Source: Candidatus Omnitrophota bacterium (GTDB lineage Bacteria; Omnitrophota; Omnitrophia; Omnitrophales; Aquincolibacteriaceae). From it: 64,000 nt of DNA. Of the stretch, positions 56,601 to 64,000 are shown piece by piece. Numbering within the stretch: the first letter of the stretch is position 1; each line of letters opens with the position of its first letter. The DNA is taken from assembly GCA_022711115.1 (NCBI GenBank), contig JAKLFP010000002.1:79674-143673 (forward strand), read 5' to 3'. Made by a program: the position numbers.

Positions 56601-59600
56601 AATTTGCCGTTGGGGAAAAGCTGACGGCAGAAAGCTTTTTGATGCAACGGATTGCACAAAAAAAATGCAGGGGATGGATAAGTAGACACAATTTTTCTTT
56701 GGACGAACTCGGCCCGCTTGATACCTGGAGTTAAAATGATGAGCTGCATCTTAGTGCCGGCCACAGAAAATTTCTTTTAATTTCTTTAAAAAAACAGAAG
56801 CAACCGTCTTCAGGACGCCGTCATGTTTTTCAAAGTAAAAGAAAAACGGCGAGAAGAAACATAAAAAAACAAAAAATTTCGCGATCGAACCAGCTATTGG
56901 ATTTTGGAAATGGACAAAATATTCGATGCCATGCAGCAAAACCGACATATAGCAAAAGATGCCAATGACCACAAGAACCGTTCTCATTAATTCCGCTTTT
57001 GCCATTAAATATCTGAAGGCATAACAAAAAAAGATAGAGAAATATAAAAAATATGCAAGAGTCGTCGCCAAAGCCACGGCTTCAATGTTTTTCCAAACGG
57101 CAATGAACGCATAATTTAGCCCTATAGCGATTAAAATCATGCCGGCGATTATCGGAATCATGCGAGCCTGTTTGTTAATGGTAAACAAAACACTCCCCGA
57201 CATTTCATTGACCGCAACAAAATAAAAGGCTGTGACCAAAATTCTCATGGAGGATAACCCGTCGTTAAATTTAGGAAGAAAATAATGGACGATCACCGGC
57301 ACGCCATAAAAAACCATCGCAATAATAAGCGGCAGCACATAAATCAAAACCCTGGTGCTTTTAACGAACAGCGATTTAGAGTCTCTCAAATTGCCTGTCT
57401 GACCGTATTTTTCCTGTATATGCGGTTGCAAGATGATCTGAGCAAAACGTCCTAGCGAATTGATCTGTTGAATGGACATCAATGCGATGGTATAGAAACC
57501 CAATTGAGTGTAACCGATCATTTTTCCTATCATAATGGTGTCGATGCTCAAAAAAATATTTAGCGCATACCCTGACACCACAAGCGGGAATCCTATCCGC
57601 ACAAGACGGAAGGTTTCTCTGGCATCCAGGCAAACACCGATCCGCGTTTTGCTGAGCCCATAGGCAAAAAAAGCAGCCAAAGATGTCGAAACGACCAAAC
57701 CACTCACCAAGCCGATGACGCCTGCCCCATAGGCTCCCACGATGGAACAAAGGGCCACTCCAATAATATTGACAACAATAACTGTGCTTAAAGTGAAGAT
57801 TTTTTTAAGCACTCGCAAGTAGGTGATCATGAAGTTATAGATCTGCGTAGCGAAAACAAGAAAACCGGCAATCATGACCCCCTTGCGTAAGACCGGATCC
57901 TTAATAAAAAGGGCAATCCCGATAAAAAGAAGCACGACAAAGCCTGCGGAAATCAAGGTGAACGCAAAGCTCACATTCCGCACTCGAAAGGCTTCATCTT
58001 CCCTCTTTGCACCCGTCGCTTGAGCCACCTCCCGAAGCATGGCATCACGAGAGCCAAGATCCGAGAGATCACCGTAGGATGAAAAGACTTTGACCATCGC
58101 AAAATAGCCGGAGCCTAAGGGACCGAGAATTCCTTTCACCACGATGCTCAGAAAAATCCCGACTCCCATCGCAAAGTAATTGGCCATGGCATATAAAATG
58201 GTATCTTTGATAATCCGTTCTCGAAGATGCATATTTCCCTGGAAAACCTTTTATTTAAAGAATAGCACTGTGTGAAAGCGGAGAACCTCGCTTAAGGGAA
58301 CGGCGGGCAGTTCGTCCGATAACTTTTTTAAGGAATTTTGGTTTCAAACCATGCGCAGGACGAATCGAGCGAACATTGTCCGCGGAAAATTTCTCGCCTC
58401 GCGCGATGTTTTTTATCACAAAAAGAGATCGACGAAAAATGCGGTTTTTTTTCTCCTTTTTTCCGATAAGGATAGAGGATTTCCCTAAAGATTGTTCTAA
58501 AGCGCGAATATCCATGACCATCTGTCGTAATTCTGCCGGTTCAGCAGAAAAAACACTATCCGGTCCTTTGGATTTACGAGAAAGAGTAAAGTGTTTTTCG
58601 ATGATCGAGGCGCCTAAAGCAACAGCGCCAAGCGCCGCAACGGAGCCCATCGTATGGTCCGAAAGACCAACGGGAACGTTGAATTCGCGAATCAAAAAAG
58701 GAATCACTCGAAGATTCATTTCGTCCAGAGGGGCCGGATAAGCGCTCGTGCATTTAAGAAGTGCGATTTGTTTCGTACCCGCTCGACGGGCAGCTAGCAC
58801 CGCTTCTTTAATTTCGCCCAAGGAGGCCATGCCGGTCGATATAATCATCGGCTTTTTTGTCTTAGCGATTTTTTCAATAAGCGGAATATCCACGAGTTCA
58901 AACGAAGCTATTTTAAAAGCAGGAACGTTCATTTTTTCAAGAAAATCGACGGAAGTCGGGTCGAATGCGGAGGAAAAGAAATCAATCCCGAGACGGTCCG
59001 CATATCTTTTTAGCCTAGGCTGCCACTCCCACGGCATAGAAGCTTCTTGATAGAGGTCATAAAGGGTTCTGCCGTCCCAGAGCGTACCCCTCTGAATTTT
59101 GAAATATCTTTTTTCAGATTTTATGGTAAGAGTGTCTGCCGTATAAGTTTGCACCTTCACCGCATCAGCGCCGGCTTCTTTCGCTGCCTTAATCAGCTCT
59201 TGGGCCGTCGAGAAACCGCGATTGTGGTTTGCCGATATTTCCGCAATGATATAAGTGGGTTGACCCAAACCGATCTTCCTTGAATTAATCTGCATCTTGC
59301 ACCTGCTCTCTGGTTGTTGCGAGATGTAACTCCTCGAAACCGCGGTGACGCGAAACCAAACCGACGGGATTATAGCCGGCTTTTAAAAATGTCCAGATGG
59401 ATGGTTGATTGATATTTTTTATATACGCGTTAATTATTTTAACGTCAGGTTTTTCTTTTATAAATAGTGCCGCTGAATTCAACAGCAAAGCCGTGCCATA
59501 TCCTTGATTCTGGAACGATTTATCGATGCTAATCGAAACAGTAGCCTCTTCGTCCAAAATATCATAGCGAACTTGCCCCAGAGGCTTTTGCTCATAATTC

Positions 59601-62600: not shown

Positions 62601-64000
62601 ATGATAAGATCACTTCCCCTAATAAAACCGACTAGACACTTAAGTAATTCATGAGTAAGTTGAGCCTGATTCCCTCCTCCTAGTGAGAAAATAATTTTAA
62701 GCTTACCTTTTGATTTCTCCGATCGTTTTTCATTTCGGATTTTTTGCAAGTCTTTTGAAAATGTAAGGAATGCCATGCCTAATAAACTTAAACGCCCTTT
62801 CAGTCCCTGGCGAGTTTCACTCATCGCATAAGGACTGTATATGATATCTGAGGGATTGCCTGAATCATCAAAGTCGTTGAAGCTTAAAAGAAGCGTTTGT
62901 TTCTTTAAAATGGCAAGATGTCGTGGAGAATGCCTATAAGTATCCACAATGAAAAGAGCAATCTTCTTTTTCAAAATAAGCATTTCAAGATATTTAACTT
63001 CCGCACCAATCGTCCAACTCAATGGGATCTTTATAAAACCCCATCCTTGGCGCCTGAGAAGCCGGATATAGTCGTTTGATAGCTTTTTATAAGCAAATAA
63101 AATTTTAAAATCTGGAGAAAGCGCCTGAGCAAGAGCGAAAGAGCGTATAAAATGCCCCGTTCCTATATCCGGGCTAGCATCGCAACGAATCATCGCTGTG
63201 CGCATCACAAAACTTCCTTTTTAGAGTTCTTCCAGCTTTTTCTGAGCGATATGGCTGTTGGAAGTGGCGAGGTCTGGATTTCGAATAAGAAAATCGATCA
63301 CCTCCCGGGCCGAGAGAGCATCCTGATTATGAAAATGCGCATAAATCGAACGTATCAACATCAGGTCCTCGGAAGTATCCACAGTCAAACGAAACGGATG
63401 GGCACCCATTCCCATGGGAACCTCGAGAAGGCGGAAACGATCCGGGTTTTGATAAATATAAGGCGTCACATGAACCCGGTGATGCGGCTGATCCGATTCG
63501 CGCCAGGCCTTCTCGAGCACGCCCGCCTTCATGACTTCTACATCCAAGCCACGGATATCGTGCGATTCAATAACATTGCTGGCATAATCCACGTCATGGA
63601 TCTCGAATTCACGAATGACCTGATCAATAATTTCTGGGGCAATCAGGGGACAATCCGATGTGATTCGAACGACTGTATCACCGCCAAAAGCACGCCATGT
63701 CTGATAATAACGGTCCAGCACATCCAATTCACTTCCACGGAAACACTCCGTTTCAAGTCTCTGACATTCTTCAACGATCCGTTGATCTTCGGGATGAATC
63801 GTCGTTGCCACAACTAACCTTGAGATTTTCTTAGCTTGGCGCACGCGCTTCACTACACGCTCCAACATCGTCTGCCCCTCAATATCTTTGAGAACTTTAC
63901 CTGGAAGACGCGAACTCCCCATGCGTGCTTGGATAATGCAGATTACTTTCACAATGCATCCCCTTTTCCTCGGATCTGCTCGCCAGTCATCAGACCTCCA

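Follow-up and report, generated by a model that had tools for sequence, protein, structure and literature searches.

The window analyzed here, a 64,000-nucleotide (nt) stretch of contig JAKLFP010000002.1 (assembly GCA_022711115.1) from a Candidatus Omnitrophota metagenome-assembled genome (MAG), carries near its end five minus-strand open reading frames (ORFs), one of which encodes a fusion of WbqC, PseG and GNAT domains. The region is best explained as the core of a biosynthetic operon for a pseudaminic acid (Pse)-type sugar activated with cytidine monophosphate (CMP), an explanation that we consider likely as a whole, the tailoring of the sugar included. Comparison with about 170 other loci (L numbers below; P numbers are proteins) shows that WbqC and the S-adenosylmethionine (SAM) methyltransferase encoded beside it, termed MT199, constitute a recurrent and widespread two-gene tailoring module. 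In Pse clusters this module is located between PseG (or an acetyltransferase) and PseI, and amino-sugar clusters of other kinds contain it alongside DegT aminotransferases and N-acetyltransferases.

An operon encoding all canonical Pse steps

The operon order is HTH_17, PseB, PseC, CTP_transf_3 cytidylyltransferase (CTPtr), a divergent PseG (PseG2), MT199, WbqC–PseG–GNAT and PseI; next come genes for a flippase and for a putative nonulosonate transferase (Table 1). All canonical Pse steps are encoded. The five ORFs lie within positions 58255–63952 and, as read from the ORFs, are separated by gaps of 4–20 nt, with one overlap. The operon proteins were scanned with Pfam and NCBIfam (TIGR equivalog) profiles, a score above the NCBIfam cut-off being taken to denote an equivalog, and PseB, PseC, one PseG domain and PseI exceed their cut-offs. 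The upstream extension was read on contig DAOOUA010000003.1 (L001; 172 kb, MAG GCA_035390585.1), which encodes a protein 100% identical to the fusion, and the proteins directly upstream of the window score 491.4 bits as PseC (TIGR03588, cut-off 423.5) and 516.6 bits as PseB (TIGR03589, cut-off 407.75), just past the edge where a first-pass annotation of this DNA had presumed them to be. The synthase scores 472.4 bits as PseI (TIGR03586, cut-off 340.25) and 336.8 bits as NeuB_NnaB, under the cut-off of 399.65 for that family. The five ORFs proposed by the first-pass annotation were all found where it had placed them, and its assignments (WbqC, PseG, GNAT, synthase, methyltransferase, PseG-like protein and cytidylyltransferase) are upheld by Pfam and NCBIfam. 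Failure of the domain searches, or a NeuB- or Kdo8P-type synthase without genes for uridine diphosphate (UDP)-sugar processing nearby, would have contradicted that annotation; the domains were confirmed, and by its profile scores the synthase is of the PseI type, neither NeuB sensu stricto nor a Kdo8P synthase.

The PseH and PseF positions are occupied by the GNAT domain and the cytidylyltransferase, respectively. The former scores 33 bits against the PseH model (TIGR03585, cut-off 93.1) and the latter 23.6 bits against the PseF model (TIGR03584, cut-off 205.7), with a match only to the CTP_transf_3 superfamily, so that neither is an equivalog. The earlier labels 'PseH-like' and 'PseF-like' have to be qualified accordingly. 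The GNAT domain has an intact acetyl-CoA motif, as read from its sequence, and can be called PseH-like only on account of where it lies and of being joined to PseG; the cytidylyltransferase, presumed to be the CMP-nonulosonate synthetase, is PseF-like by position only.

Table 1. Features of the Pse operon and of the surrounding glycan locus (window positions; aa, amino acids).
Feature	Position	Strand	Evidence or remark
pseC 3' end, last 11 nt	63990..64000	-	Mapped from L001; rest of pseC, pseB and the HTH_17 gene lie past the window edge
CTPtr, 243 aa, SpsF/KdsB-like	63221..63952	-	PF02348, E 3.1e-35
PseG2, divergent stand-alone PseG/SpsG-like GT-B protein, 352 aa	62150..63208	-	Sub-threshold TIGR03590 match and AlphaFold2 fold
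MT199, class I SAM methyltransferase, 199 aa	61546..62145	-	Generic Pfam methyltransferase matches
WbqC–PseG–GNAT fusion, 746 aa	59285..61525	-	Pfam and NCBIfam
WbqC domain, aa 1–235	60821..61525	-	PF08889 at aa 7–222, E 1.6e-68
PseG domain, canonical UDP-sugar hydrolase type, aa 243–580	59786..60799	-	TIGR03590 match at aa 243–523; GSGH motif
GNAT domain, aa 586–727	59345..59770	-	PF13302, E 3.3e-9; PF00583, E 3.9e-6; acetyl-CoA motif QNQGYG
PseI, pseudaminic acid synthase, 346 aa	58255..59295	-	TIGR03586; overlaps the fusion gene by 11 nt
Wzx-type flippase (Polysacc_synt), directly downstream	56751..58232	-	PF01943/PF13440
PF05159 (Capsule_synth) protein, 609 aa, candidate nonulosonate transferase	54935..56764	-	PF05159; weak match to BFO_1060-family glycosyltransferases
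Two large ORFs, 628 and 715 aa	36816..38702 and 45808..47955	-	No Pfam match at E <= 1e-4
AMP-binding enzyme (540 aa), MBOAT (475 aa) and AlgX-like SGNH protein (413 aa)	41418..45827	-	Side by side
NodU/CmcH-type carbamoyltransferase (626 aa) and Wzy_C O-antigen ligase/polymerase-like protein	27429..30670	-	Adjoining

A small HTH_17 (excisionase/MerR-like) gene stands at the operon head in three related clusters (L001 5095–5337, L002 5932–6216 and L170 4807–5079). Its identity across the related clusters, 71–72%, exceeds that of most operon enzymes, and its product may be a dedicated regulator of the Pse operon.

WbqC is the rare part of the fusion

In the fusion protein, the WbqC domain scores 231.3 bits against PF08889 (gathering threshold 21.3) over model positions 1–216 of 218, and the PseG domain scores 198.6 bits against TIGR03590 (cut-off 153.55) with a match to PDB entry 3HBM (E 2e-15). 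The PseG–GNAT half is ordinary: after the first three, the best matches listed for the fusion are two-domain proteins of ∼480–520 aa, mostly cyanobacterial, with 36–42% identity. PseG–GNAT proteins of ∼500 aa number in the hundreds, and the earlier view that it is unusual to find two sequential Pse steps in one polypeptide has to be abandoned. It is the addition of WbqC that is rare, as PF08889 is carried by only P0001 (the fusion itself), P0002 and P0003 among 451 matches to the full fusion. All three domains are combined in five proteins seen, in three orders: WbqC–PseG–GNAT (P0001 and P0002), PseG–GNAT–WbqC (P0003 and an ORF of L067) and GNAT–PseG–WbqC (P0355). Other architectures are GNAT–WbqC (P0332), WbqC–GNAT (P0351), a WbqC–methyltransferase fusion of 540 aa (P0333), a tandem WbqC–WbqC protein of 494 aa (P0241) and a WbqC–PseI ORF of 616 aa in an Acidobacteriaceae MAG (L078 9995–11845). 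Such independent fusions are strong Rosetta-stone evidence, at the level of sequence, for a function of WbqC in concert with a methyltransferase and with the steps of PseH, PseG and PseI.

That adjacent genes were merged into the tri-domain ORF artificially, by misassembly or a frameshift, is very improbable. The source of the ORF is a single MAG contig, and in many genomes the three parts do occur as separate adjoining genes; however, the reading frame is continuous, a linker is present, there is no internal start at the PseG boundary and other tri-domain orders are known. P0002, from an independent MAG, is a 745-aa protein with the identical domain order and 42% identity, and this indicates that the fusion is real and under selection. 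The NCBI annotation of the fusion starts at M6 (61510–61525 region) and gives 741 aa; the upstream ATG, giving 746 aa, is favoured because the first β-strand (KICIM) is included in the family alignment and in the AlphaFold2 model.

Genomic context of WbqC and its pairing with MT199

Close stand-alone WbqC homologues were found in Pse clusters with conserved synteny in all four cases sampled, in the order PseB, PseC, (aldo-keto reductase, AKR), CTP_transf_3, (class III aminotransferase), PseG-like, (GNAT), WbqC, (methyltransferase, metallo-β-lactamase (MBL)-fold protein), NeuB/PseI. Among the 55 best loci from named genomes with flanks of 5 kb or more on either side, a PseI-type synthase lies within 10 kb of WbqC in 58% and a DegT aminotransferase in 80%, and a methyltransferase resembling either MT199 or a 309-aa type (MT309) directly adjoins WbqC in 33%. 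Two sub-architectures can be distinguished. In the first, of the MT199 type (PseG, MT199, WbqC, PseI), no cluster has a GNAT by hidden Markov model (HMM) search, and in the second, of the MT309 type (PseG, GNAT, WbqC, MT309, MBL, PseI), the GNAT is directly upstream of WbqC. The complete MT199-type operons L008, L015, L089 and L170 contain no GNAT, left-handed β-helix (LbH) acetyltransferase or unassigned ORF, whereas the remaining MT199-type loci have a further gene between those of PseG and MT199, coding for an additional methyltransferase, a PglD-type acetyltransferase or a flavin adenine dinucleotide (FAD) oxidoreductase. Unassigned ORFs of ∼215 aa in MT199-type operons were considered as hidden acetyltransferases and rejected, as they are extra methyltransferases.

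MT199 directly adjoins WbqC in 15 of 80 loci, and the association was also examined from the opposite side by reciprocal seeding, in which MT199 was searched for independently in metagenomes with a query built from five closer sequences. This recovered 11 full-length members, eight of them with visible neighbours; all eight informative loci lie in Pse clusters and six have WbqC within ∼1 kb (four directly adjoining), as against none of 69 control loci with only a generic SAM motif match. MT199-family methyltransferases (HMM E 1e-51 and 1e-55) are also found beside WbqC on Bernardetia and Azospirillum plasmids, together with an aminotransferase (DegT or RffA) and an acetyltransferase of 220 aa, with no nonulosonate synthase annotated within the 7-kb flanks; the Bernardetia acetyltransferase is NeuD/PglB/VioB-like (TIGR03570, 151.6 bits, just below the cut-off of 160.8). 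MT199 is thus an orthologous family of its own that pairs specifically with WbqC, even where an amino-sugar cluster lacks a nonulosonate synthase. It is not TIGR03587: this model is absent from its listed NCBIfam matches, and BLAST against the member in L008, which scores 292 bits, gives E >= 0.03. Solved relatives of MT199 cover just the SAM-binding core, with N-methyltransferases on top.

Other arrangements were observed around WbqC. A second class of Pse cluster (L005 7712–9933; L010, L017, L020–L022, L033 and L035) carries a fixed pair directly downstream of WbqC, a ∼300-aa MetW/Methyltransf_23-like methyltransferase and a 430-aa MBL-fold protein without an NCBIfam match. An FAD/NAD(P)-binding, amine-oxidase-like oxidoreductase is encoded near the methyltransferase and WbqC in Tabrizicola (L036 7902–9374), Glaciecola (L046 11862–13286) and Caulobacter zeae (L076 8718–9974), the last match being marginal (PF12831, E about 1e-3). 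The SpsF-like CTPtr shares one stop-to-stop frame with an AKR in L019, L020, L022, L059 and L062 and with a class III (GSA-aminomutase-like) aminotransferase in L052 and L088. This suggests fusion, and hints that the CTPtr may activate a substrate other than, or besides, the nonulosonate.

The WbqC family: distribution, fold and conserved residues

A WbqC-domain search found 11,012 members among 1.84 billion representatives of 50% identity clusters. Almost all are stand-alone proteins of ∼230 aa, with only 7 of the best 150 exceeding 400 aa. The family occurs in more than 578 GTDB species genomes from many bacterial phyla and some archaea, and also on 90 plasmids, including 28 of Bacillus, 20 of Rhizobium and 10 of Streptomyces.

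The AlphaFold2 model of WbqC is of high confidence (predicted local distance difference test (pLDDT) 95.7, predicted template modelling (pTM) score 0.92). A Foldseek search of it against the PDB gave no significant match (best E 0.08, TM <= 0.38); the weak matches that recur are to HUP-class or Rossmann-like nucleotide-binding proteins and are likewise not significant (E >= 0.08). The only match of the WbqC profile to PDB sequences has E = 0.18, no recurrent remote family emerged when 86 WbqC sequences were compared with Pfam at permissive settings, and no function was found in the literature searched, where the papers that mention WbqC call it uncharacterised. Residues Q7, W13, G15, F26, W39, R42, N43, W78, Y90, Y172 and D212 are invariant, and the family alignment contains no invariant His, Cys or Lys. 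We infer that the invariant set, mostly aromatic with Arg, Asn, Asp and Gln, may form a sugar- or nucleotide-binding site.

WbqC-like genes are also present in phages: Vibrio V-YDF132 (L169 5324–6738), VH2_2019, vB_VpS_PG28 and Ralstonia phage RP13. The V-YDF132 gene comes immediately after one for a PIG-L/BshB1-type N-deacetylase and ∼2.3 kb upstream of a glycosyltransferase, and in VH2_2019 and PG28 the WbqC matches overlap the annotation of that deacetylase. Five viral proteins in BFVD have the WbqC fold in common (TM 0.55–0.79).

Origin of the two PseG copies

PseG2 has no Pfam match and scores 97.9 bits against TIGR03590, under the cut-off of 153.55 (E 7e-28), so it is homologous without being an equivalog. 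Its AlphaFold2 model (pLDDT 89) has the GT-B fold, and its best Foldseek matches in the PDB are Campylobacter jejuni PseG (3HBN/3HBM, target-normalised TM 0.77–0.79), followed closely by MurG. PseG2 retains the GxGH motif, which does not vary within its small family; the histidine of the motif, which we take to be the counterpart of the catalytic His17 of C. jejuni PseG, is H19 of PseG2, invariant in the family alignment. Both PseG copies are predicted to be UDP-sugar hydrolases rather than glycosyl transferases.

The two copies share ∼25% identity (E 2e-12), and the PseG genes found in other WbqC clusters resemble the fused domain more closely than they do PseG2. PseG2 has almost no close relatives: P0387 is the only one, at 52%, and all others are at 27% or below, one of them named SpsG by JGI. 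P0387 belongs to L170, the nearest cluster, in which the order is HTH_17, PseC, PseB, CTPtr, PseG2, MT199, a stand-alone WbqC of 235 aa and PseI. The order from CTPtr to PseI is thus that of the window without PseG–GNAT, and there is no acetyltransferase. Gene-by-gene identities to L170 and L002 form a mosaic, some genes being nearest L170 and others, PseB and PseI, nearest L002 (Table 2). A PseG2-type protein is the only PseG in some, but not all, MT199-type clusters. Orthology by synteny between PseG2 and the PseG genes (∼360 aa) of L004–L007, the four clusters sampled first for stand-alone WbqC, was considered and rejected, as the fused PseG domain is nearer to these genes by sequence.

Table 2. 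Amino acid identity of window proteins to their counterparts in two related clusters.
Protein	L170	L002
CTPtr	78%	65%
MT199	76%	39%
PseG2	52%	No orthologue
WbqC	52%	40%
PseB	60%	72%
PseI	45%	68%
PseG domain	No counterpart	42%
GNAT domain	No counterpart	46%

The simplest reading is that PseG2 would be the resident hydrolase of the lineage and not a recent duplicate. The ancestral cluster may have resembled L170, with PseG2, MT199, a stand-alone WbqC, PseI and no acetyltransferase, and a canonical PseG–GNAT module was then probably joined in frame to the C-terminus of WbqC. There would be two PseG copies because this module joined a cluster already holding PseG2. The 'duplication of PseG' described by the first-pass annotation is therefore right as to the presence of two PseG-like copies, but not as to their origin, given the ∼25% identity and the orthology of the stand-alone copy to the sole PseG of L170.

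Proposed role of WbqC and alternative explanations

WbqC is placed between the aminotransferase/acetyltransferase stage and PseI because of its gene position, its fusions to GNAT, PseG and PseI, and its association with DegT aminotransferases. In our proposed mechanism it would be an enzyme of a new, Rossmann-like fold that binds a sugar or nucleotide sugar, and would act on a UDP-4-amino or 4-acetamido-6-deoxy-AltNAc intermediate, or on the hydrolysed product, before PseI. MT199 would then methylate the group made or exposed by WbqC. The output of the operon is probably a methylated or otherwise tailored Pse, and ordinary Pse5Ac7Ac may also be made via the fused PseG–GNAT branch. A modified, for example methylated, Pse-type sugar had been suggested before from this DNA, and the suggestion agrees with the recurrence of the WbqC and MT199 pair in Pse clusters.

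Several points weigh against this mechanism. The GNAT domain and the cytidylyltransferase fall short of equivalog status as PseH and PseF. In about 40% of WbqC loci a nonulosonate synthase is lacking within 10 kb, indicating that the role of WbqC is not specific to Pse, and a methyltransferase was detected directly beside WbqC in only a third of loci, indicating that methylation is not obligatory. WbqC is tied to no particular reaction by the searches of PDB folds and sequences, remote Pfam families and the literature, and the lack of an invariant His, Cys or Lys makes a non-catalytic role possible. Lastly, the direction of the evolutionary event, a gain of PseG–GNAT as opposed to a loss in L170, is read from just two relatives.

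A more specific form of the mechanism, which we regard as a tentative possibility, is that WbqC represents a new-fold enzyme class catalyzing a so far unassigned step on 4-amino/4-acetamido-6-deoxy sugar nucleotides, with two branches in the window. GNAT and the fused PseG would lead to Pse5Ac7Ac, and WbqC, MT199 and PseG2 to a methylated, differently N-substituted Pse. Candidate reactions for the WbqC step are an N-acylation that needs no acetyl-CoA and a modification of the amidine type; the step could stand in for PseH in acetyltransferase-free operons and could explain the redundancy of the PseH step in Caulobacter.

Alternatively, WbqC may be simply an N-acyltransferase for the C4 amine produced by PseC, a non-homologous replacement or back-up for PseH working in parallel to the fused GNAT in the window. 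We think this rather unlikely. It would account for L008, L015, L089 and L170, which hold PseB, PseC, CTPtr, PseG, MT199, WbqC and PseI without an acetyltransferase, and for the DegT aminotransferases that often adjoin WbqC. It is also consistent with the observation that a C. crescentus triple mutant that has lost flmH and two paralogues still glycosylates flagellin (PMC7591256), so that another enzyme can perform the PseH step, and with the presence of WbqC beside the NeuB of Caulobacter zeae. However, WbqC coexists with GNAT in many clusters, even in fused form, and also with NeuD/PglD-type acetyltransferases, where it would be redundant; pseH is often unlinked in known organisms, which makes its absence from an operon weak evidence; and WbqC has no conserved acyl-CoA-binding signature or catalytic His, Cys or Ser.

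It is unlikely, although suggested by gene order, that WbqC and MT199 are functional analogues of PtmG and PtmH of Campylobacter and Legionella, converting an acetamido to an acetamidino group and then methylating it at nitrogen. PtmG and PtmH perform these two steps and adjoin between legC and neuB, and the genes that accompany WbqC, for an aminotransferase, an acetyltransferase and a methyltransferase, are ordered as in a pathway. The window and 87 loci searched contain a single, weak PtmG/WbuX-type match (L031), the weak fold matches of WbqC recur among HUP-class adenylating enzymes, and the top rank of N-methyltransferases among solved MT199 relatives points the same way. Yet PtmG, a PP-loop amidotransferase of the WbuX type with 373 aa, is not related to WbqC, which contains neither a PP-loop nor any other motif for ATP binding; the fold matches of WbqC are not significant, and the MT199 matches are confined to the SAM-binding core. 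A homology of Campylobacter PtmG (Cj1324) to WbqC was considered and rejected: with the full ptmG coding sequence taken from the supplement of PMC8687705, PtmG scores 408 bits against TIGR03573, and hhalign against WbqC gives a probability of 0.2%. A metagenome scan for the ptmG leader found nothing.

Less probable still is a non-catalytic WbqC, a domain that would bind CMP-Pse or an intermediate of the pathway and serve as a scaffold, in substrate channelling or in regulation. Promiscuous fusion to four different pathway enzymes, in every order, would fit such a role, as would a conserved set that is mainly aromatic and devoid of His, Cys and Lys. Against it, WbqC is usually stand-alone and is conserved over many phyla, archaea, plasmids and phages, its invariant Asp, Arg and Asn could be catalytic, and the tight pairing with a methyltransferase suggests a chemical step. 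The PseH-substitute, PtmG-analogue and scaffold readings are not separable computationally.

The surrounding glycan locus

The operon is part of a surface-glycan locus of more than 64 kb. Downstream of PseI are the flippase and the PF05159 protein, which scores 36 bits against the BFO_1060-family model NF046086, far under its cut-off, and then several methyltransferases as well as glycosyltransferases of the GT2 and PMT_2 families. Glycan functions elsewhere in the window include the carbamoyltransferase and Wzy-like protein, a GT4 enzyme and the trio of AMP-binding, MBOAT and AlgX-like SGNH proteins, which resembles an O-acylation system of the Dlt or alginate type. All ORFs of at least 200 aa in the first 1–28 kb of the window are on the minus strand, which also carries each of the large ORFs over the full 64 kb.

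Significance

Pseudaminic acids are found on flagella, capsules and O-antigens, where their N- and O-substituents set charge and antigenicity and govern how phages and the immune system recognise them. The present analysis puts WbqC at a defined point of the pathway, between the acetyltransferase/PseG steps and PseI, together with a specific methyltransferase partner, and thereby turns an 'O-antigen protein of unknown function' into a testable problem of enzymology with candidate substrates and cultured hosts, among them the WbqC carriers Glaciecola sp. SC05, Bacillus niameyensis and Caulobacter zeae. It also brings to light complete Pse operons without a recognisable PseH. The value of these results lies less in a single fusion than in the recognition of WbqC and its methyltransferase as a regular component of Pse and related amino-sugar pathways.

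Comparison with known systems

The canonical PseB–PseC–PseH–PseG–PseI–PseF pathway of C. jejuni and Helicobacter pylori shares with the window equivalogs of PseB, PseC, one PseG and PseI, and the order of the chemistry is presumably the same. The window differs in its additional WbqC, MT199 and second, divergent PseG, in having three activities in one polypeptide, and in a GNAT and a cytidylyltransferase that are not equivalogs of PseH and PseF. The two-domain PseG–GNAT proteins (∼500 aa), abundant in cyanobacteria and named 'UDP-2,4-diacetamido-2,4,6-trideoxy-beta-L-altropyranose hydrolase' by NCBI, align to residues 243–746 of the fusion (36–42% identity, ∼65% of the query) but, unlike it, lack the N-terminal WbqC.

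In the legionaminic acid pathway, PtmG (Cj1324), an acetamidino synthase, and PtmH (Cj1325/6), an N-methyltransferase, tailor CMP-legionaminic acid. Like WbqC and MT199, they form an adjoining pair of a tailoring enzyme and a methyltransferase within a nonulosonate cluster, with the aminotransferase on one side and the synthase on the other, but PtmG, a WbuX amidotransferase with a PP-loop (SGGxDS), has no detectable similarity to WbqC. The 'pseudaminic acid biosynthesis-associated methylase' TIGR03587 is, like MT199, a small SAM methyltransferase encoded inside Pse clusters. L008 and L015 encode this methylase together with MT199 and WbqC, yet it belongs to a different family from MT199. The Sps system of B. 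subtilis and the Flm system of C. crescentus are similar to the window in having a non-PseF cytidylyltransferase of the CTP_transf_3 type (SpsF/FlmC) together with a divergent PseG-like hydrolase (SpsG/FlmD); for these systems, no role of WbqC and no WbqC–MT199 association appear in the literature searched.

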